Part shown: piece after piece, positions 7,095-60,464 of the stretch
Layout of the letters: the number at the start of each line of letters is the position of its first letter
Position numbering within the stretch: the first letter of the stretch is position 1
Sequence record: NZ_CP118990.1
From: a plasmid
Strand: one strand, 5' to 3'
DNA: 64,000 nucleotides
Notes under the pieces: model-generated
Told to the model about the DNA's origin: nothing
Seen by the model: the letters and a program-made list of their open reading frames with translations, nothing else
Databases searched by the model: none
Made by a program: the position numbers and the translations under genes

Positions 7095-9869
7095 ATGAAC
7101 AACCAATCGGTAGTCTACAAATTCATTGCAGCTACACTGACGCTCACCATTTCAATGCTGCCTGTGCATGGGTACGCCGCTGACGGCATCGCTAAAGTCG
7201 GAATGGAAGCTCAGGATCTGGGCAATGAGATGGCTAACTCATTCAAAGGATCGTCGGGTTCGGTGCAGAACGGGCAAATTACACTGCCATCCATCAAAGA
7301 TGGGAAATTTGATACATCAGGACAGGCTAGTTTTAGCGTCAATGAGCTATTCCCAGGTACTAGCGGTTCAAATTCTCAAGGGAGTAGCTACTACTTCCCG
7401 GATGCGAACAATCCGAACGTTGATAATTTAAAGGGTATGTACGACTCGAATACGAATATGGATTCGCAAGGCGGTAATGCTCAAGGTTCTCTTTATTCTG
7501 ATGCGAATGGTAGTAGTCCATCAATATCCGGTGCGGCATATAAAGTGTTGCTTGATGCAGCCAATCGCTCAAGGCCTGATTTCTCCAATGATCCGATGCT
7601 AAATATGAGCAAAGACACCTATGAGAATATAGATCTTATTTCACAGGGGTTTGGGGATTGCTCTGCTGAGTCAGTGATTAAAGACTCCACTCTAAATACT
7701 CATGTGCCGAAATATGAACGCTGCCAGAGAGTAATGGATCAGAGTGCTGACTGCGAGGTTCTTCATGATTATGATGCGTCGGTTGTGAAGCACTATGACG
7801 GTCCATACAACATAAAATCGTGCGGTGCTGACTGCACTGAATTATGGATTGGTCAGGTTGCGGATAACTACTGGAAAGGCTGGTGTACTATTTATGAAGA
7901 ATACACCAGAGTGATTGTTAGCAACCCTGAGGCAATTGTTTCTGCAACTTTGGAATACGCAAAGTATGACGATTACATGCAAGTTTGGGTAGGCAAATCA
8001 GGAGCGGAAACAAAAGTTTGGCAGGGGCCGAATAACGATTTTCCTCCAGAAACAGCTGGTGAATGTGAGTTGAATACAAGCTGGGAGCAAAACCCAAATG
8101 TAGACGTTACTAAATACTTTAAGAACGTTAACCCAGGGGATGTTGTTACATTTAAAATTAGAGTTTCGGTAGCTGATGAAGGTGAGGGGTTCGGGCGAAT
8201 TAAACTGAGATTTGACCCTTCTAAAACGGTCACAAAGGATACCTGGACTCCACAATCCTGTTTGGACTCGGCTAAAGGTGTCGTTGATAAATTTGCTAAG
8301 GGTTCTTTCGTGTGCAATGACATGCCTGTGGTTGATGCGGATAAATGCACAATTCTGAACGGCATTCGTGTTTGTGAAAGTGACCTTGCTGAATCCCCTC
8401 TGCCGGGGATTGATCGCTTGTGCAGAAAGGTACATGTCAAGGCTGACTGGGATTATTATAAGGGGCAAATGGAGTGCTGGGTTGACCCTCAAGGGGAAAA
8501 GCATTGCCCGGTTAATAATGGTGGAAATCTGAACTCATGCAAGCAGTATGAAAACAACCCTCAGTGTGGGTTCATCAGCTCAGAGTGTATTGACGGTGCA
8601 CAGGGTCAGTCAGGCACATGTTATGTGTTCAAGGATACCTACGATTGCGGCACAGATGTTAAAGTCCCCTCCATGGAGAAGGAGACAGAGTTCAAGTGTG
8701 GGGGACCTATTCGTTGCATGGGTGACGATTGTCTCGACATGACTAAGACGCAGAGCTCAGACTTTGCAAAAGCAACGGCATTGCTCAACGCCGCGCAGTT
8801 TATGACTCAAGATATGACTTGCACGGGCCAAGATGGAAATGACAAGCCTACGGGCGAAGAGAACGTTATTTGTTCCGCCTTTGCGGGAAAAAAAGGCGAG
8901 TGTAAAATTGCGGTCGGCGGCGTATCAGACTGCTGTGAAAAGCCGACCAATATTTCTTTGTCTGATTACCTCGCCTTGATCATGGCGGTGCCAAAGCTGG
9001 ATGGTGCTGTAATGAGCCTAAGTGACGGTAATGTGATGAAAGGGGCATATCAGGTAATCCGCGACCCGGCTGTCCAAGGATGGACCGAAGTTACTAAGCC
9101 ATTCACCAGTTACGTTGAAAACCTGTCAGGAAGTGTGGACTCATTCACTCAGCCAATTGAGCAGTTCGTTGATCAATTTATTGATCAGATTAAAGCTCAG
9201 ATAAAAGAAGTGATGATGGATGTGTTTAAATCAGCTGGGCAAGATGCTGCAACTGAACAGGCGGCCGCGGCCGCTTCCGAACAGGCAGCAGAGCAATTGA
9301 TGCAAAGCGCCGCCACATGGATGAGTACGGCAATGACCATTTATACAATTTATGTCGTTACAATGGTCATGATTCAAATGATCTGGAAGTGTGAAGAAGA
9401 TGAGTTCACTATGAATGCGCAACGTGCTTTGGATAATTGCACCTATGTTGGTTCATATTGTAAAACGAAAGTATTGGGTCAATGTATTGAGGAGCGAGAA
9501 GCTTATTGCTGCTTTAACTCCCCCCTTTCTAGAATTATCCAAGAGCAAGTTAGACCTCAGTTGGGACAAGACTTTGGCTCGGCAGAAAGCCCACAATGCC
9601 AAGGTATTCCTCTGGCTGACATTGGGAAAATTGACTGGAATAAAGTGGATTTGACCGAATGGCTCGGTATTTTACAGCAGAACGGGAAGTTTCCAAATCC
9701 ACAAGACATGGACATCAACAAGCTTACCGGTCAGGGCAGTGATTTTAATATTGATGGTGGAAGAAAAAATGCTCAGGAAAGAGCAACAGATAGACTAGAT
9801 GGTATTGATGTTGATGCTGTCAGGAAAAAGGTGACTGACAATATGGATGTTCCTACTGGTAGCAATTAA
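7095..9869 (+). CDS. traN: TraN, large cysteine-rich outer-membrane mating-pair stabilisation protein
   Basis: 924 aa; signal peptide; very Cys-rich C-terminal half (many CxxC/CC pairs) as in F-type TraN; followed by a terminator. Confidence 0.65.
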   Translation: MNNQSVVYKFIAATLTLTISMLPVHGYAADGIAKVGMEAQDLGNEMANSFKGSSGSVQNGQITLPSIKDGKFDTSGQASFSVNELFPGTSGSNSQGSSYYFPDANNPNVDNLKGMYDSNTNMDSQGGNAQGSLYSDANGSSPSISGAAYKVLLDAANRSRPDFSNDPMLNMSKDTYENIDLISQGFGDCSAESVIKDSTLNTHVPKYERCQRVMDQSADCEVLHDYDASVVKHYDGPYNIKSCGADCTELWIGQVADNYWKGWCTIYEEYTRVIVSNPEAIVSATLEYAKYDDYMQVWVGKSGAETKVWQGPNNDFPPETAGECELNTSWEQNPNVDVTKYFKNVNPGDVVTFKIRVSVADEGEGFGRIKLRFDPSKTVTKDTWTPQSCLDSAKGVVDKFAKGSFVCNDMPVVDADKCTILNGIRVCESDLAESPLPGIDRLCRKVHVKADWDYYKGQMECWVDPQGEKHCPVNNGGNLNSCKQYENNPQCGFISSECIDGAQGQSGTCYVFKDTYDCGTDVKVPSMEKETEFKCGGPIRCMGDDCLDMTKTQSSDFAKATALLNAAQFMTQDMTCTGQDGNDKPTGEENVICSAFAGKKGECKIAVGGVSDCCEKPTNISLSDYLALIMAVPKLDGAVMSLSDGNVMKGAYQVIRDPAVQGWTEVTKPFTSYVENLSGSVDSFTQPIEQFVDQFIDQIKAQIKEVMMDVFKSAGQDAATEQAAAAASEQAAEQLMQSAATWMSTAMTIYTIYVVTMVMIQMIWKCEEDEFTMNAQRALDNCTYVGSYCKTKVLGQCIEEREAYCCFNSPLSRIIQEQVRPQLGQDFGSAESPQCQGIPLADIGKIDWNKVDLTEWLGILQQNGKFPNPQDMDINKLTGQGSDFNIDGGRKNAQERATDRLDGIDVDAVRKKVTDNMDVPTGSN

Positions 9870-9883
9870 CCCGAATTGCGTGA

Positions 9884-9913
9884 AAAAGGGAGGCATGATG
9901 CCTCCTTTTTTAT
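9884..9913 (+). terminator. Rho-independent terminator after traN
   Basis: Hairpin aaagggagg-catgatg-cctccttt followed by a T-run. Confidence 0.7.
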
Positions 9914-9940
9914 TGGGTGCAGGTTGCTAGATCTAGCCCG

Positions 9941-10600
9941 CCAGCCGGGGGATCATGGCCGGGGGCCTGCGGCGGCCCCGGTTCCCGAGCGGCGGCGGCC
10001 GATGCCGGTGCGGCTGGATGCCGGAGCTCGCCCACCAGCCGGGGGATCATGGCCGAGGGCCTGCGGCGGCCCCGGTTCCTGAGCGGCGGAGGCCGGTACC
10101 GGTGCGGCTGGGTGCCGGAGCTGGCCCGCCAGCCGGGGGATCATGGCCGGGGGCCTGCGGCGGCCCCGGTTCCCGAGCGGCGGCGGCCGATGCCGGTGCG
10201 GCTGGATGCCGGAGCTCGCCCACCAGCCGGGGGATCATGGCCGAGGGCCCGCGGCGGCCCTGGTGCTCGATGGGCAGCAGCTGGTGGTGGGTATGGGGGG
10301 GGGGCCCGGAGCCGCCAGCCGGGGGGGATCATGGCCGAGGGCCCGCGGCGGCCCCGGTTCCCGAGCGGCGGCGGCCGATGCCGGTGCGGCTGGATGCCGG
10401 AGCTCGCCCACCAGCCGGGGGGGATCATGGCCGGGGGCCTGCGGCGACCCGGTAGCCGGTTCCAGCTCGGTGCCCTGGTGCTCTATGAGCAGCTGCCGGT
10501 GGACGGAGCCAGAGCTGGCTCACCAGCTGGGGGGATCATGGCCGGGGGCCTGCGGCGGCCCCGGCGAGCCGGTTCCCGCTCGGCGGTGGTCAGAGTGGGT
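9941..10600. repeat. GC-rich ~94-bp tandem repeat array, about 7 copies (first four near-identical, last three diverged)
   Basis: ccagccgggggatcatggcc recurs at 9941, 10035, 10129, 10223, 10315, 10412 and 10523; visibly much more GC-rich than flanking DNA; unit length not a multiple of 3. Confidence 0.85.
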
Positions 10601-10620
10601 GCTAAGACTGGTATTTGTAG

Positions 10621-10653
10621 ATAAAAAAATGGCCGCTAACAGATGGCGGCCAG
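10621..10653 (-). terminator. Rho-independent terminator of the minus-strand lipoprotein gene
   Basis: On the minus strand: hairpin tggccgc-catctgtta-gcggcca followed by a T-run. Confidence 0.6.
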
Positions 10654-10667
10654 AGAAGGGGCGATGT

Positions 10668-11531
10668 TTAAGAAGGATAAACAAAGAGCTCGGGTTTACC
10701 CTTTTCAAGCAGATATGGGAATTGGACCTTATCACCACTTTCCATAGTGACTTCTTTCGGAGCTAGATAGATGAAGCCCCAAGTCGGGAGGTTTTGGCTG
10801 ATTTTGGCATAGACAGCTTGTTCAGGAGCATGGCTTGCTGCGCCATTTGTGACATTGATGAAGTTAAACTGCGTTTCATGACCGGAAGTGAAGGCATACG
10901 CATCCCCTTGAACTCCAGTAATGAACGCTGGAGCTGTGCCCCGACTCGGTTCTACGACACGTACCTTGATGGAGCACATATCCGAAACCTTACTTTTACC
11001 ATTGATCCAAGTCGGGCAGCCCCATTCGTTCTTGTAAAATTGGTACGTCAGGTTGCCATCTTTGTCGTAGAGCAGAGTGAACTGCGCTCCTAGATCGGTC
11101 AGCGATGACTCGACAGAAAATTTCACATGTGAAATAAATTTGGCTTGAGCGTCAGCGGGAGATGCAGCCTCGCTTGCGGGCATCCAAGCAAGCAGGCTGT
11201 TACGGGAGCCATGCTGCTTGGGACCTATTGCCCAGTTAGCTAAATTGACCAGCCCGCCCTGCCAGTCAGATAACCCACTAACGCTCGGGGAGATATAGCC
11301 AGAGAGCACATAGGCGGCCCCAAAGGTTTTGGTATCTGTCAGTCGCTCCAACTGATCGCGTGGAACAGACGCATCCTGAATCCCTGTTTTCAGGTCACCG
11401 GCCTCGGCAATGTTGAAGGCGCGGCTGTGGTCAGTTTTGTAAGTTGCCGGTTCATAGCGGGCGCTCGTGCTTGCGCAACCAGAGAGCGTAGTCATGCACA
11501 GAGCTGTAGTGGCGATCAGTATCTTATTCAT
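10668..11531 (-). CDS. Lipoprotein of unknown function
   Basis: MNKILIATTALCMTTLSGCAS: signal peptide plus lipobox LSGC; AAGGAG RBS 6 nt upstream of the second Met; contains one copy of the ATTTCACATGTGAAAT palindrome. Confidence 0.6.
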   Translation of the reverse strand: MNKILIATTALCMTTLSGCASTSARYEPATYKTDHSRAFNIAEAGDLKTGIQDASVPRDQLERLTDTKTFGAAYVLSGYISPSVSGLSDWQGGLVNLANWAIGPKQHGSRNSLLAWMPASEAASPADAQAKFISHVKFSVESSLTDLGAQFTLLYDKDGNLTYQFYKNEWGCPTWINGKSKVSDMCSIKVRVVEPSRGTAPAFITGVQGDAYAFTSGHETQFNFINVTNGAASHAPEQAVYAKISQNLPTWGFIYLAPKEVTMESGDKVQFPYLLEKGKPELFVYPS

Positions 11532-11663
11532 TACGTTCTCCTTACTCACCTGAATGGGGTTTCACTTCATTGGCCTAGATAATATCACGGCATCAAAAAA
11601 TGCAACTGTAAAAAAAAGCCCCTCATTCAACTGAGGGGCAAGCACGGGTTGTTACAGGTTGTT

Positions 11664-12326
11664 CTATGCAACAGCTTTATCAGCCTGGTTCTCGATGTCA
11701 GCTTCGGCATCCAGCTCGTGTTGAGCGGCGACCGGGGCGGCTTGCGCAACTTCACTCTCTTTGCCCTTGGCATGAGCGGAGACTCTGGCCCGTTTTTCGA
11801 TGCCAATGATGCGGCCAGACAGTTTGAACAGGCGTTGTTGCCACTGATAGTTCGCTTCGGTCCGTTGCTTGTTGCTGAGGATGGCATTGAGCCAGAGTGT
11901 ATCGACGATACCCATCAAGCCATCAAGCTTGCGGATCAGATGAACAAACTGGGCCACTTGGGGAGAACTAATCTCGATGTCATAGGTGGTCGGATGGCTG
12001 TAGCCAGGCATACCGTCGATACCATTGTCTGCCATAACTTTCTTGAGTTGGGCGGTGCCCTTATCAAGATCTTCGGAAACCTTGGCGATGAGTTCCAGGA
12101 TGATAGCTTCAACCTGGTCGATTTCATCCTGTTCGCCGATGATGCGGAGGATAACATCAATAGAGAACAATGAGTTAGATACCCGGTCGAAACTGCGGTC
12201 CATGACACGTTGTGCCTGGAGGCTGTTCATTGTGACTGAGTTTTTAAACACCGGACGAGAGTAGTCCGGACGACTGATGTTAGGACGCGGCTGGCTTGCC
12301 GCGACAGCTATTTCTGCTTCTGCCAT
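11664..12326 (-). CDS. Hypothetical protein (acidic, coiled-coil-like)
   Basis: AAGGAG RBS before MAEAEIAV; no recognisable motif. Confidence 0.5.
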   Translation of the reverse strand: MAEAEIAVAASQPRPNISRPDYSRPVFKNSVTMNSLQAQRVMDRSFDRVSNSLFSIDVILRIIGEQDEIDQVEAIILELIAKVSEDLDKGTAQLKKVMADNGIDGMPGYSHPTTYDIEISSPQVAQFVHLIRKLDGLMGIVDTLWLNAILSNKQRTEANYQWQQRLFKLSGRIIGIEKRARVSAHAKGKESEVAQAAPVAAQHELDAEADIENQADKAVA

Positions 12327-12482
12327 TGATATGCTCCTTAGGGTACGGGGTAAACGCACGATAAGGATAAAGAGATTTTTTTCGTAATCAGATCGCTCAA
12401 GTTGCCCAAAATGGACACCTACAGCGTTTTCTATCCGAAATAGATCCGCTATATTTGAAGCATCTCAGTCGCTCTGCGACTT

Positions 12483-13448: not shown

Positions 13449-13516
13449 TAGGTGGCCTCACAAAGAGGCCACCTCTAACTTGAAGCAAGTCTGCTCACTC
13501 ATGGCTCGGTCATCAG

Positions 13517-13600
13517 TCAGTAGATTTTGTTCTCTTCGGAGAGCGAAAAAGTGCGATAGCTGGTCGCCAAAAACAAACAGCAAACGAACGTTTTTTTTCT
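13517..13600 (+). promoter_or_regulatory. B-type copy of the conserved promoter-like module
   Basis: agattttgttctcttcggagagcgaaaaagtgcgatagctggtcgccaaaaacaaacagcaaacgaacgttttttt; near-identical copies at 17794 and 31180. Confidence 0.55.
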
Positions 13601-13666
13601 AACCCATCCGGGTGCATCCTCCCGGTTCGGGAATAGATGCGCCTGCCATTTATAAGGAACGCATCT

Positions 13667-14635
13667 ATGTCTCAATACGCTCAATACTCAGTAAGCAAGG
13701 TCTTCGGTATGCCAAGCATCCCGGAAAAGGTTTTGGCTGTTGGCTATGCCGATACCACTAACCCGTTCATCCCTGCTACTGATCCCAACTACGTTTTCCG
13801 CAAAGAGTTTCTGCGAGAGGTTTTGGCCTTCCTCAAAGAACCTGGCGGTGACGGGTTGTTCACTACGGGCCCTACCGGGTCAGGTAAAACCTCTGGGATC
13901 ACTGAAATCGCGGGTCGTCTGAATTGGCCTGTACAGCAAATCACTGCCCATGGGCGGATGGAGCTGTGCGACCTGATCGGACATCACGCGCTGATTGCAG
14001 CTAACCCCGGTGAACCCCCTGTCATGAAGTTCATGTATGGACCGCTGGCAGTTGCCATGCGTGAAGGTCATATCCTCCTCATCAACGAGGTGGATCTGGC
14101 TGATCCTGCCGAACTGGCTGGTCTCAATGACGTCCTTGAAGGTCGTCCTCTGGTGATCGCTCAGAACGGTGGTGAAATCATCAAGCCGCACCCGATGTTT
14201 CGTGTGGCTGTTACCGGCAACTCTACTGGTTCCGGTGATGCTTCTGGTTTGTACCAGGGCGTGATGATGCAGAATATCGCCTCAATGGATCGCTATCGTT
14301 TCATCAAGGTGGGATATGCCGAAGATATTGCTGAACTCAGCATTCTTGGACGTGTCACTCCCAACCTGCCGGAGAACATCCGAAGTGGAATGGTGCGTAT
14401 CGCCAACCAGGTGCGCAAGCTGTTCCTCGGTGAGAACGGTGAAGATGGTCAGCTCAGCATTACCATGTCCACTCGGACGTTGGTGCGCTGGGCCAAGCTC
14501 TCTCTCGCCTTCCGTGGTGCCCCTAACGCTCTTGAGTACGCCTTGGATCAAGCTCTGCTTATCCGGGCCGCGAAAGAGGAACGTGAAGCTGTCCTGCGCA
14601 TTGCGAAGGATGTGTTTGGCGAACAGTGGCGCTAA
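13667..14635 (+). CDS. MoxR/CobS-like AAA+ ATPase
   Basis: Walker A GPTGSGKTS; Walker B ILLINEVD; sensor motifs; CobS-like proteins of this size occur in SXT/R391 ICEs and phages, paired with a VWA (CobT-like) protein. Confidence 0.75.
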   Translation: MSQYAQYSVSKVFGMPSIPEKVLAVGYADTTNPFIPATDPNYVFRKEFLREVLAFLKEPGGDGLFTTGPTGSGKTSGITEIAGRLNWPVQQITAHGRMELCDLIGHHALIAANPGEPPVMKFMYGPLAVAMREGHILLINEVDLADPAELAGLNDVLEGRPLVIAQNGGEIIKPHPMFRVAVTGNSTGSGDASGLYQGVMMQNIASMDRYRFIKVGYAEDIAELSILGRVTPNLPENIRSGMVRIANQVRKLFLGENGEDGQLSITMSTRTLVRWAKLSLAFRGAPNALEYALDQALLIRAAKEEREAVLRIAKDVFGEQWR

Positions 14636-14648
14636 GGGGAGGGCGGAT

Positions 14649-15545
14649 ATGAAGCTCAATGACTGTCTGTGCCGTCGTTACACCTTTTCTACTGTGACCG
14701 CTTGGCAAGTTAATCAAACGTTCATTGGTTTCAAAGTGCTGCGGGAGCCCAGCTCCTCAGCACCGGGCCAATTAGTGATGGTTGAAATTTGTCAGGTTGT
14801 TATAAATGGAAAGGCTCAAAATTGGTCCGAGCAGCAGCTTGGAAATACCTTTGAAGCCAACAGCTTTGAAACCATCCCGATGGTCTACCAAGACCAAGAA
14901 AAGCAGCATGTGTCGAAGTTAATCGAGCAGGGGTATGTCTACCTGGACGAGGTACTGGTAAACGCAACGACACGTATTGTGCAGGAAGTGGTAAAGGAGC
15001 GGGCGAACACCTCACCTGTGTGGTGTTCAGTCAACTGGTTGTTTACCCCTCCACCTGGAGGGGGAAAGATCTACAAAAAGTTTCTCAACAGAGTATTTGC
15101 CGAAGCCGCCACTTTGATTGAGTTTAAAGTTGAGCGAGATGGGAGCGATGATGAGCAACTATCCGGGGCATTGATGAGAACGGACAGTGGTTTTGAGCTG
15201 AGGGTAGATCGTAGTCTTGGCGAAAACACCATCCATCCTGACACGCTGGAAGGCGCTGGTGAGATTCGCTACGAACATGGTTATTTGCCGTTGCTGATCC
15301 TGATATACCTGCAACAGCAATATGCCTACCATTTCGTCGGTGTGAGCAATGCCCCATGGGTGACGTTCTGCGATGAGCAGGGCAACCCCTTTGAGTATTC
15401 GAACTTTGATTCGCTGGTACCCTTCATTGAGCGGTTCGGTTTCAGCTATGACGAGGTGAGGAAGGATGCGGAAAGGCTTGGCCTTGCGTCTGCACTGATC
15501 CGTCTGGCTGGGATTGAAACCGAGCAAGAGGACTTGTTCTTTTAA
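14649..15545 (+). CDS. Hypothetical protein
   Basis: GGGGAGGG RBS then ATG at 14649; the ORF-track start at 14316 overlaps the upstream gene and is rejected. Confidence 0.5.
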   Translation: MKLNDCLCRRYTFSTVTAWQVNQTFIGFKVLREPSSSAPGQLVMVEICQVVINGKAQNWSEQQLGNTFEANSFETIPMVYQDQEKQHVSKLIEQGYVYLDEVLVNATTRIVQEVVKERANTSPVWCSVNWLFTPPPGGGKIYKKFLNRVFAEAATLIEFKVERDGSDDEQLSGALMRTDSGFELRVDRSLGENTIHPDTLEGAGEIRYEHGYLPLLILIYLQQQYAYHFVGVSNAPWVTFCDEQGNPFEYSNFDSLVPFIERFGFSYDEVRKDAERLGLASALIRLAGIETEQEDLFF

Positions 15546-15650
15546 CCTTCGGAAGGGAGCTTTTCCCTTCCAAGTTACTTGTAATTAACCCTTCGGGGGC
15601 ACTACTGCCCCGAGGGGCATGGTGTCCCCCAATCACATTGGAGATACACC

Positions 15651-16655
15651 ATGTCTGAAACTAATTCCTTGGTTGTCCGTATGGCTTCCCGCTTCGGAGT
15701 CGATGGCGATAAGTTCTATGCAACGTTGAAAGCAACGGCATTCAAGCAGCGTGATGGCAGTGAGCCGACACATGAGCAGATGCTGGCGCTCATGGTTGTT
15801 GCGGAACAATACAACCTCAACCCCTTTACTCGGGAAATCTATGCGTTTCCTGACAAGCAGAATAAGGGGATTGTTCCGGTTGTTGGCGTTGATGGCTGGA
15901 GCCGTATCATCAATGACCACCCTCAGTATGATGGCGTCGAGTTCGTCTATACGGACAAAATGGTCAAAATGCCGGGGGCAAATGTCGAGTGCCCTGAGTG
16001 GATTGAGTGCGTGATTTACCGTAAGGACAGATCTCGCCCCACCCGCATCAAGGAGTTTCTCGATGAGGTCTATCGTCCGCCGTTTCAGGGGGATGGTGAG
16101 TATGGTGCGTACACAGTTAACGGTCCCTGGCAGACTCACACCAAGCGTCAACTCCGTCATAAAGTGTTGATTCAGTGTGCTCGGGTCGCGTTAGGTTTCT
16201 CTGGTATCTACGACCAGGATGAAGCCGAACGCATTCGCGAGATGGAGCAAGCTACGGCGATCAATCCCGCTGTAGCCAATCTTCCATCACCGGAAACCGT
16301 AAGTCAGATCGTGCCAGAGCCGGTTCAGGAAGTTGTGCTCATTGAGCACAAAGAAATGGACCCCATGCTGACCAAACTCGTTGGCCGCGCCATTAAAGGC
16401 AATGCCTGGTCTGCGGCACACGAGTATGTTGAAGAGCGATACAAAGGTACTCAGTTGGCGTATGCAGTTCACTACCTTCGTGAGAAGCAGATGGACCACA
16501 TGCCCCCCGCTGATGCCGACTACCAGGACATGCAAGGGCCGGTCATTGAACATGATCAGGCAGGTGCAGCACCGGTAGTTCAGGAATCCAATTCCCAACC
16601 ATCAAGTAAAGTGGAGGAGCCTCCCGTGATGGAAGAGGAAGTATGGTACGAGTAA
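15651..16655 (+). CDS. bet: Bet, RecT/Red-beta family single-strand annealing protein
   Basis: N-terminal region resembles lambda Bet / SXT-Bet (S065); acidic C-terminal tail; directly followed by exo. Confidence 0.75.
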   Translation: MSETNSLVVRMASRFGVDGDKFYATLKATAFKQRDGSEPTHEQMLALMVVAEQYNLNPFTREIYAFPDKQNKGIVPVVGVDGWSRIINDHPQYDGVEFVYTDKMVKMPGANVECPEWIECVIYRKDRSRPTRIKEFLDEVYRPPFQGDGEYGAYTVNGPWQTHTKRQLRHKVLIQCARVALGFSGIYDQDEAERIREMEQATAINPAVANLPSPETVSQIVPEPVQEVVLIEHKEMDPMLTKLVGRAIKGNAWSAAHEYVEERYKGTQLAYAVHYLREKQMDHMPPADADYQDMQGPVIEHDQAGAAPVVQESNSQPSSKVEEPPVMEEEVWYE

Positions 16656-16722
16656 TAAACCCCACCGGGGGGCTTCCCCCCTGTTGGGGGGATCTCCCTC
16701 CTAACCACTGGAGAGGTCCGTC

Positions 16723-17733
16723 ATGAAAATAGTCAACCTGTCGCAGCGCGAGGAGGATTGGCTTGCATGGCGGCGTCGAGGCATAACCGCCACCGACGCC
16801 GCTATCTTGCTCAATCGTTCTCCGTACAAAACCCGATGGAGACTGTGGGCCGAGAAGACCGGATATGCGCGAGAAGTCGATCTGAGTCTCAATCCTTTGG
16901 TTCGCCGAGGGGTTGCGAATGAAGATTTGGCAAGGCGAGCTTTCGAGGAGAAGCATGATGACATGCTGCTCCCGGTTTGTGTCGAATCGGTACAATATCC
17001 CCTCATCCGTGCTTCGTTGGATGGATTGAGGGATTGCGGTGAGCCGGTCGAGCTGAAATGCCCGAGCGCGACTGTCTGGCAAGACGTTTGTCTTGAGAAA
17101 GCAAACAGCAACGCATACAGGCTTTACTACCCGCAGGTGCAACATCAGCTCCTGGCTACGGGTGCAAAGCAAGGGTGGCTAGTCTTCTACTTTGAAGGCC
17201 TGATCCTGGAGTTCCCCATACTCCGTGATGAAGCCATGATTCAAGAAATCTTGGCTGAGGCACAGCGGTTCTGGCAGCAGGTGGTGGACAAGAAGGAGCC
17301 CGAAAAAGATCCGGAGAAAGACCTCTTTATACCGCAAGGTAAAGAGGTTAACGCATGGATCGCTGCGGCTGAGGAGTACCGTCTTTATGATGCAGAGGCT
17401 CAGGAGCTGAAACAGCGCTTGGCCGAGTTGCAAGAGAGGCAGAAACCTCACCTCGACACCATGAAGGCCCTCATGGGGCAATACTTCCATGCCGACTACT
17501 GTGGCGTGATGGTGACAAGGTACAAAGCGGCAGGTAGGGTGGACTACAAGAAGCTGTTGGCTGACAAGGCTGCGGGTGTTAAGCCCGAAGACATCGACCA
17601 GTACAGAGAAAACTCATCAGAGCGGTGCCGAGTGACGGTAACTGGCTCGGTGAAACCACGGTACATTGTGGATGATAGGGTCTTGGCCCCTCTCCAAAAT
17701 CTATCGGAAGAAGTAACGTCAAGTTGGTGGTAA
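16723..17733 (+). CDS. exo: Exo, YqaJ/lambda-Exo-like alkaline exonuclease
   Basis: N-terminal WLAWRRRGITATDAAILL...SPYKT motif typical of the YqaJ/lambda exonuclease family; partner of bet as in SXT (S066). Confidence 0.7.
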   Translation: MKIVNLSQREEDWLAWRRRGITATDAAILLNRSPYKTRWRLWAEKTGYAREVDLSLNPLVRRGVANEDLARRAFEEKHDDMLLPVCVESVQYPLIRASLDGLRDCGEPVELKCPSATVWQDVCLEKANSNAYRLYYPQVQHQLLATGAKQGWLVFYFEGLILEFPILRDEAMIQEILAEAQRFWQQVVDKKEPEKDPEKDLFIPQGKEVNAWIAAAEEYRLYDAEAQELKQRLAELQERQKPHLDTMKALMGQYFHADYCGVMVTRYKAAGRVDYKKLLADKAAGVKPEDIDQYRENSSERCRVTVTGSVKPRYIVDDRVLAPLQNLSEEVTSSWW

Positions 17734-17793
17734 GCGGGGATTTCCCCGCTTTACCCGTTTTCCACTGTGGACTCCATGAGTCTCCAATGGAAA

Positions 17794-17872
17794 GCAGATT
17801 TTGTTCTCTTCGGAGAGCGAAAAAGTGCGATAGCTGGTCGCCAAAAACAAACAGCAAACGAACGTTTTTTTC
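17794..17872 (+). promoter_or_regulatory. B-type copy of the conserved promoter-like module
   Basis: Near-identical to 13517-13600. Confidence 0.55.
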
Positions 17873-17936
17873 TAGCCCAACCGGGCGCATCCGCCCGGTA
17901 TGGGACGTGATGCGCCTCAAAAATATGGAGTGCATC

Positions 17937-22075: not shown

Positions 22076-22212
22076 AGGGGGGGGTCCCCTCCTGCTTTCC
22101 TAGGGGCATAAAATTTCACATGTGAAATTGTTTGTGTCACTCGGAAAGCAAGATTTTGCTCTTTGTCGAGAGTGAAGCGTGAGATAGCTGGTCTCCCAAA
22201 ACAAACAGCAAT
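22076..22212 (+). promoter_or_regulatory. Full A-type copy of the conserved ~135-bp module
   Basis: GGGG..CCCC hairpin-ctgctttcc-ataaaatttcacatgtgaaat-tcggaaagcaagattttgctct(hairpin)gagagtgaa-cgtgagatagctggtctcccaaaacaaacagcaat; copies at 26281 and 36871. Confidence 0.65.
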
Positions 22213-22280
22213 CTACCTCAGCCCCTCGGGCGCACAGCGCCCGTTGGGTCATGTGCGTCCTCAACACTTAAGGAACGCAT

Positions 22281-25934: not shown

Positions 25935-26288
25935 ATGAGTGCAGTGAAACTGATCCAGAATGTAAACCAGCTTGAGCTACAACTTTTCTTTCTGGAAGAG
26001 ATGCCTAAAACCGCAGAAATTATCCCGTTAGAGCCGAAGCTTGAATGGACTGATGATGAGGTTTGGCAATTACGAGACGGACTGCTCTGGCATAGCCTGA
26101 GAGTCCTGGCCGATGGTCGAGCTGGAGTGGAGATCAAACGGGAGACGATGGGGTGGATGATGTCAGATGACATCCATCCGTTCTCGTTCGTCGTCTGTTG
26201 CGCTCAAGCGGGCTATGACCCATCTGGTATTAGGGAAGGCGTTGAGTCTATCCTAAACCGCCTTGCGCGGGTTAAAGTGGGGGGGTAA
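25935..26288 (+). CDS. Hypothetical protein
   Basis: TAAGGAG RBS. Confidence 0.45.
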   Translation: MSAVKLIQNVNQLELQLFFLEEMPKTAEIIPLEPKLEWTDDEVWQLRDGLLWHSLRVLADGRAGVEIKRETMGWMMSDDIHPFSFVVCCAQAGYDPSGIREGVESILNRLARVKVGG

Positions 26289-26412
26289 CCCCCTGCTTTC
26301 CCAGAGGCATAAAATTTCACATGTGAAAATTTTTTGTGTCTCTCGGAAAGCAAGATTTTGCTCTCTGTCGAGAGTGAAACGTGAGATAGCTGGTCTCCCA
26401 AAACAAGCAGCA
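26281..26412 (+). promoter_or_regulatory. Full A-type copy of the conserved module
   Basis: See 22076; includes the tttcacatgtgaaa palindrome. Confidence 0.65.
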
Positions 26413-26517
26413 TATAGCCTATCCTGACCGGCATCTCCGGTCAGACCATCAAAAACCCATTGGGACGTACACTCCCTTTCGGGTCGTGCGTCCTTCTTTA
26501 CCCCTAAGGAGTACGCC

Positions 26518-31117: not shown

Positions 31118-31258
31118 AGGGCAGGGGGAAACCCCTGCTTTCACCACAGTCTACTTACCCATGGCCGCGCCATCGGTAAGCAGATTTTGTTCTCCCTGGA
31201 GAGCGAAAACGTGCGATAGCTGGTCGCCAAAAACAAACAGCAAACTATCAATTTTTTT
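31118..31258 (+). promoter_or_regulatory. B-type copy of the conserved module (with A-type GGGGG-aaa-CCCC head)
   Basis: ggcagggggaaacccctgctttc...gcagattttgttctccctggagagcgaaaacgtgcgatagctggtcgccaaaaacaaacagcaaac. Confidence 0.55.
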
Positions 31259-31320
31259 ATTAACCCACTGGGGGAACGTGCCCCTGATGGGGCCGTTCCT
31301 TCTCCTACCGGAGAAGAACG

Positions 31321-36870: not shown

Positions 36871-37006
36871 GGCAGGGGGAAACCCCCTGCTTTCCAGGTG
36901 GCATAAAATTTCACATGTGAAATTTTTGTGTTACTCGGAAAGCAAGATTTTGCTCTCTGCTGAGAGTAAATCGTGAGATAGCTGGTCTCCCAAAACAAAC
37001 AGCAAT
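36871..37006 (+). promoter_or_regulatory. Full A-type copy of the conserved module
   Basis: See 22076. Confidence 0.65.
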
Positions 37007-37076
37007 TTTATTAACCCCTGCGGGTACATCATCCCGCTCGGGATCGGTGTACCCACCACAAAATGGAGTACACCTT

Positions 37077-40152: not shown

Positions 40153-40178
40153 TGGTGTGGGATGAAAATATTTTCATC
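40153..40178. repeat. Perfect 26-bp palindrome GTGGGATGAAAATATTTTCATCCCAC
   Basis: Exact inverted repeat; the same GGGATGAAA motif recurs inside the ISAs1-like MITE at 46.3-46.5 kb. Confidence 0.6.
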
Positions 40179-40204
40179 CCACACTTGGGATTAAACTAGG
40201 TAGA

Positions 40205-42191: not shown

Positions 42192-42554
42192 ATGACTAGC
42201 ACTAGCAAAGCTAACGGACCATTCCACCAGATCATTCGGGGGAAAGGTTGGACGCTGGTTGAGGTCGGCCTGCGCTGGGGGATTAAAGAACGGCAGATGA
42301 GCCGCATCGCAAACTCGGCAAAGCAAAGAGACCTTGATGCCGCCAACGGTCTACCGTTGAATGACAAAAATGCCTCAAAGATGGTGGGCGAGCCCATGCA
42401 CCAGCACATCCGGGGTAAAGGCTGGACGTTGACCGAGGTAGGAGAACGATGGGGCGTCGCTAAACGGCAAATGAGCCGCATCGTGAAGGCGGGCAAGCCA
42501 AAAGATCTTGATGCCGCAACCGGCTTGCCTCACCAAGACAAGTCAGCCAAGTGA
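42192..42554 (+). CDS. Tandem-duplicated helix-turn-helix (XRE/Cro-like) protein
   Basis: Two ~55-aa repeats IRGKGWTL.EVG.RWG...RQMSRI...K..DLDAA.GLP; pattern matches HTH of XRE-family regulators. Confidence 0.5.
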   Translation: MTSTSKANGPFHQIIRGKGWTLVEVGLRWGIKERQMSRIANSAKQRDLDAANGLPLNDKNASKMVGEPMHQHIRGKGWTLTEVGERWGVAKRQMSRIVKAGKPKDLDAATGLPHQDKSAK

Positions 42555-42741: not shown

Positions 42742-43467
42742 ATGATGACATTGACCACTGTCGCCAAAAAGACATCCAACAACTCAGCCCTGGTATTCTG
42801 GCGCGTAGGTACGAAACGCAAGGGCATTCTGGACGTTCGCACGGACTTCGAGCATGAGGAATCTGACCTCCTCGCAGAGTTGATCGCGATTCGACACCTG
42901 GCATTGGATAAGCAGGTATTCTGCCGGGAGCCAGGCGCCGGAGCTGGTTACAAGCTGGTGGTTTCGAAAGGTGCGATCAAGAAACTAGCGTTGGGGAAAT
43001 CAAGTAAGGCATTCGCCGCTAAGTTTGCATCCTTCCTGACTGGCAGGATGCAGGGGGCCACTATTGAAGTGGCCCAAGGCATGGATTACATGGATGAGCC
43101 CGGTGAGAGTAACATCGAACTCCTTGATGTGGACAAGCAGGCATTCACTCAAACCTATGATGAGATCAATACACCTGCTATTGGCCCAGTGCTTGTAACT
43201 CAACATGCCCTCAGCCAATATCAAGCTAGGATCACATCTGGTGACCCCAAGAAACCTTGGGCTTCGCTTGTCGGCCGCCTCAAGCACCCGGAGCTACAGT
43301 TGCAACCATTCGATGAGAGGGTGGCCCGCCACAAAGCAATGAGGTATGGCCGCGTGGATAACGTGGAAGTCTGGGGGCACCGGGATTCTAAATTCAAATA
43401 TCTGATGGTCATCAATGACGATAATAAGAAGCGGGTATTGGTAACTGTATTTGAACGAAAGGAATAG
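42742..43467 (+). CDS. Hypothetical protein (241 aa); last ~25 codons lie in a 162-bp direct repeat
   Basis: GAGGTAAG RBS; no motif recognised. Confidence 0.5.
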   Translation: MMTLTTVAKKTSNNSALVFWRVGTKRKGILDVRTDFEHEESDLLAELIAIRHLALDKQVFCREPGAGAGYKLVVSKGAIKKLALGKSSKAFAAKFASFLTGRMQGATIEVAQGMDYMDEPGESNIELLDVDKQAFTQTYDEINTPAIGPVLVTQHALSQYQARITSGDPKKPWASLVGRLKHPELQLQPFDERVARHKAMRYGRVDNVEVWGHRDSKFKYLMVINDDNKKRVLVTVFERKE

Positions 43468-43551
43468 TTGAGTAATTTGTCATATAGATCTTATTCTGCA
43501 AGGTGTAAAAAATCGGTGCCGACTAGGCAGTTATCGGACAGATCGCCTTGA
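43389..43551. repeat. Direct repeat copy 1 (~162 bp), second copy at 46609-46770
   Basis: taaattcaaatatctgatggtcatcaatgacgataataag...ggacagatcgccttgaa identical at both sites. Confidence 0.85.
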
Positions 43552-43826
43552 ATGTGGATAGTCGATGAACGATCTCCGGGTTGATAGGAGCGACGCAGGG
43601 TCTTGCCATCAACGGCAATCAATGCCCCATCCATCTGCTGCTGGATGGCCTGGGTCCAGCGAATGAATGCTGCCTGAAACTGCTCTGGCTGGATGCGGGA
43701 GATGATCCTGGCGATGGTGTCATGCACAGGAATACCATTTAGAAACAGTCCCTTATCTTGAAGCCATGCCAGATGGACCTCGCCAAAGTCTTCGATGTCC
43801 TCCCACCCCTGAGCGCCACCAATCAC
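43491..43826 (-). pseudogene. ISAs1 (H-repeat) family transposase N-terminal fragment, truncated at both ends and fused to the duplicated 3' end of the 46711 gene
   Basis: GAQGWEDIEDFGEVHLAWL...NGIPVHDTIARIISRIQPEQFQAAFIRWTQ...AVDGKTLRRSY matches the conserved N-terminal region of ISAs1/H-rpt transposases; lacks ~35 N-terminal aa and the entire catalytic region. Confidence 0.6.
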
Positions 43827-46287: not shown

Positions 46288-46607
46288 GGGAAGGTGCGAA
46301 TAAGTCACCAAACATAAAAATGTGTGGGATGAAAATAAAGTTTCATCCTTGCAAATAAAGTGTCATCCCAACGGGATGAAAGCATTGATTTTGCTGGGCT
46401 GTAGCCGTTCTTACTGCTCAAATCACTGACTTTAGGATGAAACTTTAACCATCGTAGCGGGCTGGATCGCAACGTAATTTCTGGGTTTCAAGGCGGCGAA
46501 AGGATGAAACTTTATTTTCATCCAACAAAATGCGCCCTTGTAAGTATTTGAATTTAATGAACTAAATTTTTCTGTTTCGTTGTGGAGGGTGCTTATTCGC
46601 ACCCTCC
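46288..46607. mobile_element. ISAs1-family-derived miniature element (MITE): terminal inverted repeats GGGAAGGTGCGAATAAG / GGAGGGTGCGAATAAG, no transposase
   Basis: Left end gggaaggtgcgaataagtcacc at 46288; right end (reverse complement) ggagggtgcgaataagcaccc at 46607; interior carries GGATGAAA inverted-repeat motifs (46326, 46360, 46437, 46501). Confidence 0.5.
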
Positions 46608-46608
46608 A

Positions 46609-46770
46609 TAAATTCAAATATCTGATGGTCATCAATGACGATAATAAGAAGCGGGTATTGGTAACTGTATTTGAACGAAAGGAATAGTTGAGTAATTTGT
46701 CATATAGATCTTATTCTGCAAGGTGTAAAAAATCGGTGCCGACTAGGCAGTTATCGGACAGATCGCCTTG
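46609..46770. repeat. Direct repeat copy 2 (~162 bp)
   Basis: Identical to 43389-43551; begins immediately after the MITE right end. Confidence 0.85.
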
Positions 46771-47253
46771 AAAAAGCAGAGTAGAGATCTCTTGCTCTGT
46801 AATTAAATTATTGCTTTTAAGAACATTTATTAAGGCTGTATCAGCAATATCGTGGAATCCCTCAATAAGGTCTTCCACCATTGCGGCAGCCTTTCGTTCT
46901 TCTTCGCTTTTCCCCATCGACCCGTCGCAGAGCCAATCTTCCACATTGCCGTATTGGGCAACGTAACTGAGTTGTTCGCACTCATGCGCAATCAGCCCAG
47001 TAACTCTCTCCATGAGTAGGTCATCGTAGGTGGGGAGTACCAGCACTGCGCCATGGCCTGGGATGTTGCGTTGGACCGTCGCCTCACTCTGAGGGCTACT
47101 TTTGAGCCATGAGAAGGCCCAAAGACCAGAACCGATCTTTTCAAGAAATATGCCTCGCTCGGAGAAGAAATCGGAGACATTTTTGAAGATGGTGCCACCT
47201 GGAGCGGCCATCGAATAGATGGATGCCATTAGCTCATCCTGACTCATGTACAT
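46711..47253 (-). CDS. Hypothetical protein (180 aa)
   Basis: AGAGG RBS before MYMSQDEL; C-terminal 18 aa identical to the fused tail of the transposase fragment because of the direct repeat. Confidence 0.5.
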   Translation of the reverse strand: MYMSQDELMASIYSMAAPGGTIFKNVSDFFSERGIFLEKIGSGLWAFSWLKSSPQSEATVQRNIPGHGAVLVLPTYDDLLMERVTGLIAHECEQLSYVAQYGNVEDWLCDGSMGKSEEERKAAAMVEDLIEGFHDIADTALINVLKSNNLITEQEISTLLFQGDLSDNCLVGTDFLHLAE

Positions 47254-59582: not shown

Positions 59583-60464
59583 ATGCAGACTAACTTCATC
59601 TCCGAACAGTACACAGCCATCACCCGTGACCTCGATCGCCTCGCAACTCTCATCCGGCGCCTGCCCCATCGCGACGCCCGTGTCGCGGCCATCACACCCA
59701 CGGCCAAAGGCTCCGAAAGCGAGCCTACAACCAACATTGTTGTCCTGGAACAAACCGGGAGCGATGCCCTGGCGCTCGCCGCCGACTGCTACCGGGATCT
59801 CCACATCATCCCCCAGCTCTCCCAGAAGTCGGCCCGCCGAACCGTCGGCGTATTGTGGCTCTCCCCTTCCCAGAGCGGCGCGGCCGCCACTGACGAGCTC
59901 CGGCAGCTGGTGGACCGCATCAACACCGCCAAGGCCGGTATCGAGACGTTCATCGTCTCCAACTACGGCACCCGCCAGGAGCGTTTTGAGGCACTCCGGG
60001 CCGAATGCCCCGGCGTGATGACCCTGCACCTGTACCGGCAGATCCGGTGCTATGCCGAGGGGGACGTGGATTCTATCCGGTTCACCTGGCAGCAGAAGGA
60101 CTCGCTCAAACGGCCCGACAAAGATGAGCTGATGCGCCGGATCCGGGTTGAACTGGAGAAAGCAGGGCCAGATTTTCGGCCGCAGCTGGAGGAGCTGCTC
60201 GACAAGATTTCCGGCACCCCCGAGGCAGCGCTGCGCGAGCGCCGGGAGGTAAAGGTGCAGCCGGTGGCAAACATCATGGCCGCGGGGGCACTGAGAACGG
60301 TGACGGCACCGATGCCTCTGATCCTGCTCCAGGATGCTGATGCCAAGATCAAGATGCTCAAGTCGTTTGACCCGAAGGCAGGGCGCAAAACGCGGAACGA
60401 CCGGGTGGAATCCCGTGTTATCGGGACATTTTGCGGGGTCGCCATCGAGGCATTTCCGTTGTGA
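59583..60464 (+). CDS. Hypothetical protein (293 aa), GC-rich
   Basis: AAGGACCTCC RBS; no motif recognised. Confidence 0.45.
   Translation: MQTNFISEQYTAITRDLDRLATLIRRLPHRDARVAAITPTAKGSESEPTTNIVVLEQTGSDALALAADCYRDLHIIPQLSQKSARRTVGVLWLSPSQSGAAATDELRQLVDRINTAKAGIETFIVSNYGTRQERFEALRAECPGVMTLHLYRQIRCYAEGDVDSIRFTWQQKDSLKRPDKDELMRRIRVELEKAGPDFRPQLEELLDKISGTPEAALRERREVKVQPVANIMAAGALRTVTAPMPLILLQDADAKIKMLKSFDPKAGRKTRNDRVESRVIGTFCGVAIEAFPL

Follow-up and report, generated by a model that had tools for sequence, protein, structure and literature searches.

We analysed a 64,000-nt stretch of plasmid DNA (sequence record NZ_CP118990.1), hereafter the window, in which a GC-rich array of tandem repeats at 9942-10600 filled the spacer between two convergent genes, traN and a homologue of sfx. 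The traN gene (7095..9869, + strand) encoded the mating-pair stabilisation adhesin and was identified by the TraN equivalog of NCBIfam (NF011458, 1543 bits) and by the Pfam family F_T4SS_TraN. It was followed by an intrinsic terminator of bidirectional shape (9883..9912), which had an A-run, a GGAGGCA-TGA-TGCCTCC hairpin (9889-9905) and a T-run and was matched by a terminator scan. On the far side of the array, the sfx homologue (10668..11549, - strand) ended in a terminator of its own (10623..10652, - strand) with the stem TGGCCGC/GCGGCCA (10630-10652), a 9-nt loop and a T-run on the - strand; it was read by eye, its loop being one base over the limit of the scan. An initial annotation, made from the sequence alone, had placed the array between the traN terminator and that of a convergent lipoprotein gene, and the sequence agreed with it. 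The identity of the lipoprotein gene could be refined. Namely, its 293-aa open reading frame (ORF) had a lipoprotein-like N-terminus (...TTLSGC) and was 75.8% identical in amino-acid sequence to the traN-adjacent gene of ~780 IncC/IncA plasmids. The lipoprotein gene located between traN and acaB has been reported to be sfx, including that of pAsa4c and pAhD4-1, and to encode a surface-exclusion factor of the outer membrane, for which TraN determines the specificity (PMC11493245).

The array consisted of seven head-to-tail units, all in the same orientation according to a repeat finder and a profile search. Tandem Repeats Finder reported a period of 94 and 5.5 copies at 9936-10450, with 82% matches and a score of 726. 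A 35-nt core, GGGGGATCATGGCCGGGGGCCTGCGGCGGCCCCGG, occurred seven times (starts at 9947, 10041, 10135, 10229, 10323, 10419 and 10530) at spacings of 94, 94, 94, 94, 96 and 111, and a 21-nt core pattern had seven matches in the whole 64 kb, all of them inside the array, against 0.01 expected from shuffles. A unit profile built from many arrays likewise picked out exactly these seven units, with no isolated unit in the rest of the 64-kb window. The conserved cores alternated with ~59 nt of more variable sequence, and these inter-core segments were themselves repeated in 2-3 types. No inverted-repeat pairs were found in the array by the repeat finder. The GC content was 0.74-0.80 across 9900-10600 and 0.42-0.50 on either flank, with a base composition of A 0.09, C 0.33, G 0.46 and T 0.12 in the array. 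Thus, the about seven copies of a 94-bp unit and the striking GC-richness described initially were both confirmed.

When split at a CAGCYGG anchor, the units measured 94, 94, 94, 92, 96, 112 and about 80-88 bp, all on the + strand. Their types (A, B or C) were assigned by simple motifs. Unit 1 (9942..10035, 94 bp) was of the canonical type A (profile E=1.3e-18), unit 2 (10036..10129, 94 bp) was a type A variant with GGTACCGG (E=3.7e-20), and unit 3 (10130..10223, 94 bp) was of the same type as unit 1. Unit 4 (10224..10315, 92 bp) was a type C variant containing ...GCTCGATGGGCAGCAGCTGGTGGTGGGTATG-G10..., and unit 5 (10316..10411, 96 bp) was again of type A with a G7 run (E=1.4e-18). The diverged unit 6 (10412..10523, 112 bp) was orthologous to a 110-bp unit of the metagenome relative L029, and the terminal unit 7 (10524..10611) decayed into an AT-richer right boundary, GGTGCTAAGACTGG. 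Accordingly, the four near-perfect 94-bp copies of the initial annotation were present as four canonical units, but these were units 1, 2, 3 and 5, since the fourth supposed 94-bp copy was the 92-bp variant with the G10 tract; units 4, 6 and 7 were the variants. Additionally, units 1 and 2 paired with units 3 and 4 as a 188-bp higher-order repeat. The G-runs varied among units (5, 6, 7 or 10 nt), and the unit length shifted by 1-2 bp accordingly; the lengths recorded were 92, 94, 95, 96 and 112 bp. The G10 homopolymer of unit 4 (10295-10304) was likely to be prone to slippage and sequencing error.

On the left, the array began with a degenerate, AT-richer edge (9919..9941, + strand), where a 12-bp palindrome, GCTAGATCTAGC (9926-9937), aligned with the unit end GGAGCTCGCCC. 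A role of this palindrome as a repeated operator was rejected because it was unique in the window. The left boundary was common to the relatives L001, L019, L020, L022 and L026 and was partly kept in L018, where it was cut by an IS3 insertion. The right boundary was identical in L029 and differed by one base in pAsa4c-type plasmids. The possibility of an assembly artefact, raised at the outset, did not hold for the existence of the array, which was carried by independent complete plasmids. It did apply to the exact copy number in the window, which was provisional since the window came from a draft contig, JAPCIT010000024.1 of 67,974 bp (assembly GCA_027707385.1), and short-read assembly could collapse or expand four near-identical 94-bp units.

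The array was non-coding. In its longest ORF, GC by codon position was 0.78/0.76/0.76, compared with 0.68/0.45/0.83 in a real high-GC gene of the window, and the period-3 signal-to-noise was 0.31 in the array, 24 in traN and 6.2 in sfx. No Pfam or NCBIfam family matched any ORF through the array, and a search of 5.8 billion proteins returned only nine patchy ORFs lacking domains, all derived from related arrays. No coding sequence lay under the array in the (incomplete) gene tables of PLSDB in any of the 12 matching records. These results supported the initial view that the long Pro/Gly-rich ORF was spurious. At the RNA level, Rfam gave nothing in the array at or near the gathering threshold and no CRISPR repeat family. 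Single units folded no better than dinucleotide shuffles (z of -1.3 to +1.05 on both strands), and the sole promoter-like site of the scanned region fell outside the array, leaving none within it.

In PLSDB, the array and its flanks matched only Aeromonas conjugative plasmids of the MOBH/MPF_F type, for example pAsa4c, pS44-1, pAhD4-1, pKAM339_1 and pHX3. The traN and sfx genes of these relatives were 83-92% identical to those of the window (91.7% at the nucleotide level for traN of pAsa4c). The traN terminator was kept in L001, L019 and L022, and the sfx terminator in L001, L019 and L029. On these comparisons, the host element was an Aeromonas plasmid with an IncA/C-like (ACL) backbone of the pAsa4/pAhD4-1 type, the ACL plasmids being those of the Burrus group, rather than an integrative and conjugative element (ICE) of the SXT/R391 family. 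Membership in the SXT group failed because all near relatives were circular MOBH/MPF_F Aeromonas plasmids. The initial assignment to the traN-proximal hotspot of ICEs was thus right in synteny with the ICE site and wrong in the kind of element.

An array, its derivative or its remnant was present at the traN-sfx site in 10 of 10 PLSDB plasmids with near-identical traN. Metagenome scans added further carriers (L026, L028, L029, L030, L031, L034/L045/L047, L036 and L040), and five examined metagenome contigs ended within an array. Moreover, related units were found at no fewer than four other intergenic sites of ACL-type plasmids: adjoining a homologue of the window's ~47.4 kb region in L031; downstream of topB near the MobH relaxase gene in L034 and L040, the same mobH-lipoprotein-topB module being present in pAsa4c; in L024, with a tyrosine recombinase gene on one side and a HipA toxin-antitoxin operon on the other; and ~650 bp downstream of rep in L025. 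A second array was not found on pAsa4c, where the only trace was a very weak remnant ~650 bp downstream of rep (E=0.23). Outside this lineage, neither 5,426 complete E. coli genomes nor phages gave a match, and 185,579 species-representative genomes contained no arrays and just 16 single chance matches in high-GC organisms. In the IncC plasmid pP99-018, the spacer between sfx and traN was just 38 bp long and lacked the array. Taken together, these searches indicated that the array is specific to the Aeromonas IncA/C-like (pAsa4/pAhD4-1) lineage and would be dispensable for traN and sfx. We found no description of the repeat in the literature searched, the coverage of which was incomplete; this included the comparative paper on pAsa4, and the word "repeat" was absent from the sfx paper (PMC11493245).

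The copy number of the array differed widely among relatives: 1.5 in L020, 3.4 plus 1 in L022, ~4.5 in L029, 7 in the window and 9.4 in L001, L018 and L019. These counts supported the suggestion of a variable number tandem repeat (VNTR) or minisatellite. The L040 array contained ~13 degenerate units, and that of pAhD4-1 (L021; 4369-4712, at the traN-sfx site) was a tandem array of 68-bp (3.9 copies) and 80-bp (2 copies) units made of rearranged pieces, or words, of the 94-bp unit and lacking GATC. The clearest case was provided by the A. caviae plasmid L001 and by pS44-1 and pAsa4c (L018/L019). Their traN genes were identical at 2775 of 2775 positions and their sfx genes at 99.9-100%, but the unit order was BBAABAAAA in L001 and BBBBABAAB in the other two. 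Since three plasmids with 100% identical traN differed in unit order, turnover of the array must have been far faster than that of its flanks. Similarly, the flanking genes of the window and pAsa4c were 92% identical, compared with 79% for the units. The array is thus hypervariable as judged from the sequenced relatives.

The distribution of divergence along the array was also informative. The first and last units were degenerate and AT-richer, and the array boundaries were conserved among relatives. Such a pattern is what interior homogenisation through unequal exchange or conversion leaves behind. In the old, degenerate array of L040, changes from GC to AT outnumbered those from AT to GC (90 and 32, respectively, relative to the unit consensus), which implied an equilibrium GC of ~0.59. 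We concluded from this spectrum that the GC content of 80% was inherited via amplification and was not an equilibrium value. GC-biased conversion keeping the GC content at equilibrium was rejected, as the L040 substitutions decayed toward ~0.59.

The array and its edges were repeatedly hit by mobile elements, in line with the earlier placement of the array at a hotspot. Inside units of three arrays lay Tn7-like (TGT...ACA) elements, each flanked by an exact duplication of a 5-bp target. These were a 326-bp element resembling a miniature inverted-repeat transposable element in pKAM339_1 (L022, 7935-8260; duplication GCTGG), a ~870-bp element carrying small genes in L028 (about 388-1258; duplication GCCCG), and a 3.3-kb element in pHX3 (L023, 7912-11253; duplication AGAGC), which split the array. 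They were non-autonomous, belonged to three different end families, and differed in insertion point and orientation. An additional insertion was found at the right edge of the array in L020 and L022, and two other plasmids had an insertion sequence (IS) separating the traN terminator from the array, IS3 in pS44-1 and IS1595 in RZ6S-1 pA. Judging from these sequences, the array was a permissive, perhaps favoured, insertion target, with the insertions having been counted at array sites only. A dedicated Tn7 attachment site was rejected because of the three end families, the varied points and orientations, and the occurrence of the same end type elsewhere in the window.

Several other features of the window resembled the elements inserted in the arrays. 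A perfect 28-bp palindrome at 40156-40183, TGTGGGATGAAAATATTTTCATCCCACA, had the appearance of a pair of Tn7-like ends joined directly, without intervening sequence. It was followed at 40201 by the motif TAGACATATTTGAC, which also preceded genes for Ner-like helix-turn-helix (HTH) proteins beside the arrays in L023, L028 and L034. A tandem pair of small Ner-like HTH genes was present at 42201-42356 and 42381-42536, with 52-79% amino-acid identity to the HTH genes of the array-inserted Tn7-like elements of L023 and L028. A further Tn7-like end at 46321-46380 had three TnsB-type repeats of roughly 20 bp, starting at 46321. Close to it, a 177-nt direct repeat (43389-43565 and 46609-46785, 97% identical) flanked an AT-rich 3.2-kb island (43.5-46.6 kb, GC 0.34-0.43), which was absent from the metagenome relative L031.

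The plasmid also encoded its own recombination system, of the single-strand-annealing kind. An operon resembling hde (13637..17730, + strand), 3-7 kb from the array, contained genes matched in Pfam as a CbbQ/AAA_5 ATPase (13637-14632), a RecT-family Bet protein (15651-16652) and a YqaJ-family Exo protein (16723-17730). Between sfx and this operon, the ORF at 11664..12359 (- strand) is probably the transfer activator gene acaB, as judged from its position only, given the published location of sfx between traN and acaB (PMC11493245); no Pfam or NCBIfam family matched it. In IncC plasmids, Bet and Exo carry out RecA-independent recombination of intergenic direct repeats of 7-155 bp, thereby repairing double-strand breaks, and it was suggested by the authors that the repeat sets co-evolve with their own Bet/Exo system (Roy et al. 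2020, PMC7498323).

The window also contained intergenic direct repeats that were dispersed and fell into two families. The first was 125 nt long and present three times (13488-13612, 17762-17886 and 31148-31272). The second was ~150 nt long, was also present three times (22080-22230, 26281-26432 and 36875-37024), and included GGCATAAAATTTCACATGTGAAA. Copies within both families were 76-87% identical and could be analogues of the IncC rpt repeats or shared promoters. Additionally, the E. coli-type Chi octamer GCTGGTGG occurred outside the array 19 times on the + strand (3380, 5547, 18972 ... 59906) and once on the - strand (46258), with a chance expectation of ~1 per strand, which amounted to strong enrichment and orientation bias in the backbone. 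Inside the array, Chi was found at 10032, 10220 and 10408 on the - strand and at 10280 in unit 4 on the + strand, so that three of the four - strand occurrences in the window were unit junctions (CCACCAGC). A conserved Chi cluster was nevertheless rejected, as the junction in relatives was mostly CCGCCAGC; the Chi sites of the array were thus a one-mutation by-product.

We consider it somewhat probable, at a little better than even chances, that the array is a self-homogenising, non-coding, GC-rich minisatellite that forms a gene-free hotspot of insertion and recombination in the spacer between traN and sfx. According to this model, homology-driven exchange among the units (unequal crossing-over, gene conversion, replication slippage and single-strand annealing) would expand, contract and reshuffle the interior units, and the edge units would escape homogenisation and decay. 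The likely catalysts would be the host RecA and the plasmid's own Bet and Exo, homologues of which are encoded 5-7 kb away, although the pathway itself is inferred. For them, tandem copies of 94 bp are an ideal substrate, so that units would likely be lost and shuffled by Bet/Exo together with RecA and replication slippage. As the copies are tandem, annealing would alter only the copy number of the array and could not rescue distant breaks. Therefore, we do not claim a repair function, since annealing at the array cannot rescue breaks elsewhere on the plasmid. The outcome would be a recombination-prone, gene-free buffer beyond both terminators that tolerates and accumulates IS and Tn7-like elements, with the array as the physical core of the traN-proximal hotspot for variable DNA in this lineage. 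Homology-driven rearrangement is the sole activity demonstrated for the array, and an insertion-tolerant buffer devoid of genes is its demonstrated consequence. We infer that the array has no dedicated sequence-specific function.

A number of observations weighed against the minisatellite model. The array or its remnant was retained in all ten lineage members, and related units were present at the four or more further sites described above. Retention and spread of this kind exceed what is expected for a neutral, deletion-prone repeat and are compatible with a selected cis-acting role. The blocks GG.GATC, GGCC.GCGGCG and CCGGAGCT.G.CC were conserved through all array variants. GATC was kept in most units even where the adjoining bases changed, so that it could be a site of binding or methylation. 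The Tn7-like ends located elsewhere in the window meant that the arrays were not their exclusive target. Finally, the model leaves the origin of a unit with 80% GC without explanation.

It is conceivable, though rather unlikely, that the units are a selected cis-acting module, either a recombination or landing pad that co-evolved with Bet/Exo and is favoured by Tn7-like elements or a binding array for a plasmid or host factor. Such a module would explain the retention, the spread to at least five intergenic sites and the survival of the GATC and CCGGAGCT blocks. A more specific version, to which we gave a similarly low probability, is a cis-acting protein-binding element bound once per unit, for instance in a centromere-like, handcuffing or titration role or as a methylation cluster of the Dam/SeqA type. 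The direct tandem repeats had a tight period of 94-96 bp, or ~9 helical turns, and most variants carried one GATC per unit where the composition predicts ~1 per 800 bp. The conserved blocks common to all variants, the persistence in 10 of 10 lineage members and the units at other intergenic sites, including the one ~650 bp downstream of rep genes, could be read in the same direction. However, the neighbours of the array were traN, sfx and the probable acaB, and no par or rep gene was adjacent in the window; in pAsa4c, the ParA/KorB and ParM genes lay tens of kb away. No dyad symmetry or short invariant core stood out in the units, and their conservation was diffuse, as homogenisation predicts. 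The palindrome content was inconsistent between arrays (z = -1.8 for that of the window, +8 for that of pAsa4c). This also led us to reject a restriction-site or palindrome decoy, as palindromic hexamers were enriched in the pAsa4c units and depleted in the window array. Furthermore, the 68-bp unit of pAhD4-1 was remodelled and had lost GATC, one relative was down to 1.5 units, and the array of pHX3 was split. The true iterons of L025 were a different repeat of 16-29 bp, and IncC and IncA relatives function in the absence of the array.

The array could also act as a transcriptional or topological insulator between traN, which depends on AcaCD, and sfx, with a stiff GC-rich spacer blocking read-through, absorbing supercoiling or stopping silencing. 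This was improbable in our view. In its favour, the array was placed exactly between two convergent terminators, sfx is constitutive and highly expressed whereas the tra genes are repressed (PMC11493245), and the arrays of L025 and L040 were also located between convergent genes. On the other hand, the same two genes are only 38 bp apart in IncC, both already have their own intrinsic terminators, and the arrays of L024, L031 and L034 did not lie between convergent genes. A copy number ranging from 1.5 to 9.4 showed no visible constraint.

Another reading with a small probability is that of a foreign high-GC remnant, captured once and then amplified, which would have no role and whose GC content would reflect its donor. 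Such an origin had been listed among the initial suggestions. The GC content of 0.80 compared with ~0.5 in the backbone, the substitution spectrum decaying from a high-GC state, and the location at an insertion hotspot all fit it. Nevertheless, no supporting match emerged: the 185,579 species genomes contained no donor but only single chance matches of the core pattern, phages and E. coli had none, and no protein family was found in any frame. This reading concerns the origin of the repeat and is compatible with the minisatellite model.

A structured RNA, an array of small RNAs or a CRISPR-like array was very improbable and was rejected. The alternation of a 35-nt conserved core with ~59 nt of variable sequence recalls such arrays, but the supposed spacers were themselves repeated, folding was shuffle-like, Rfam had no match at the gathering score, and the array lay between two terminators with no promoter-like site inside. 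A repetitive Pro/Gly/Ala-rich protein or a set of peptides (a 235-aa ORF on the + strand, or ATG-initiated ORFs of 63-95 aa on the - strand with one start per unit) was hardly credible despite the long ORFs in several frames, the 157-aa and 158-aa products predicted by gene callers in the source assembly and the ATGATC at the beginning of every - strand unit, because the periods of 92-96 and 112 bp varied by 1-2 bp and were not a multiple of 3, the GGATCC variants found in L031 and L034 no longer had the ATG, GC was equal at the three codon positions with no codon periodicity, and neither a protein family nor a conserved full-length homologue nor a PLSDB coding sequence corresponded to it.

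Toward its right end, the window became a mosaic accessory region (56-64 kb) common to many enterobacterial plasmids. A Tus-like gene (Pfam Ter, E=8.6e-41; 59583-60464, + strand) was located in a segment (54.1-60.5 kb) that was 99.4% identical to A. caviae plasmids of the pGSH8M-1-1 type, and no E. coli-type Ter sites for its product were found in the window. A transposase of the Tn3 family (61947-63986, - strand) lay in a block with a GC content of 0.6-0.67 at the very end.

Multidrug resistance is spread in aquaculture and in clinical Aeromonas by IncA/C-like plasmids, those of the pAsa4 type among them, and the traN-proximal region is where they gain and lose cargo. A hypervariable, transposon-attracting, GC-rich array explains why short-read assemblies break at this site. 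The array could be used as a fine-scale typing marker for plasmids with otherwise identical genes and as a natural substrate for studying how plasmids are reshaped by Bet/Exo annealing or RecA. Should it bind a factor or direct insertions, the array would count as a new cis-element of plasmids; otherwise, it would be a clean example of satellite-like DNA evolution on a bacterial plasmid.

Comparison with known systems placed the array closest to minisatellites. Membership in the CRISPR class failed, since the spacers were repeated and the neighbours were traN and sfx. Repetitive extragenic palindromes (REP) and bacterial interspersed mosaic elements (BIME) are likewise GC-rich and extragenic and frequently lie between convergent genes. 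However, REP units are imperfect palindromes of about 35-40 bp in alternating orientation with hundreds of chromosomal copies. This class was rejected because the array had no inverted repeats, its units were unidirectional, and there were no chromosomal copies apart from single chance matches in the 185,579 genomes. Plasmid centromeres can consist of tandem repeats, as in sopC of F with 12 x 43 bp. The array resembled them in consisting of direct repeats and in being carried by a large, low-copy plasmid but had no adjacent par operon and no dyad core in each unit; its units and copy number were labile, and close relatives lacked it.

The SXT/R391 ICEs reportedly carry a hotspot for variable DNA downstream of traN (HS4, traN-s063). 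Its position was syntenic with that of the array, and relatives of the window accumulated IS, Tn7-like elements and extra genes there. The element studied here was a plasmid rather than an ICE, and the site held sfx and the tandem array. To our knowledge, no tandem array of this kind has been described for the traN hotspot of ICEs.

The nearest functional relatives of the array were the IncC repeats rptI-rptIV (PMC7498323), which are also non-coding and intergenic and belong to the same plasmid superfamily, on a plasmid encoding Bet and Exo. They differed from the array in two respects. First, the rpt copies lie scattered at distances of kilobases, and annealing thus removes the intervening DNA, whereas the array copies were all tandem. 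Second, there was no sequence similarity, and the array had no match in the E. coli genomes, which include many IncC plasmids. The dispersed repeats of the window were better rpt analogues than the array, on which the action of Bet/Exo is only putative.

In comparison to these systems, the array agreed with bacterial minisatellites and VNTRs of the type used in multilocus VNTR analysis (MLVA) in having head-to-tail repeats of tens of bp, a copy number and unit composition that varied between near-identical replicons, and a homogenised interior with degenerate edges. It showed all of the tested features of this class: repeats, polymorphism, and no coding or structured-RNA signal in the sequence. 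At the same time, it differed from the usual examples in being plasmid-borne, in exceeding the GC content of its surroundings by 30 percentage points, in being present at several intergenic sites within a single plasmid family, and in being repeatedly hit by transposons.

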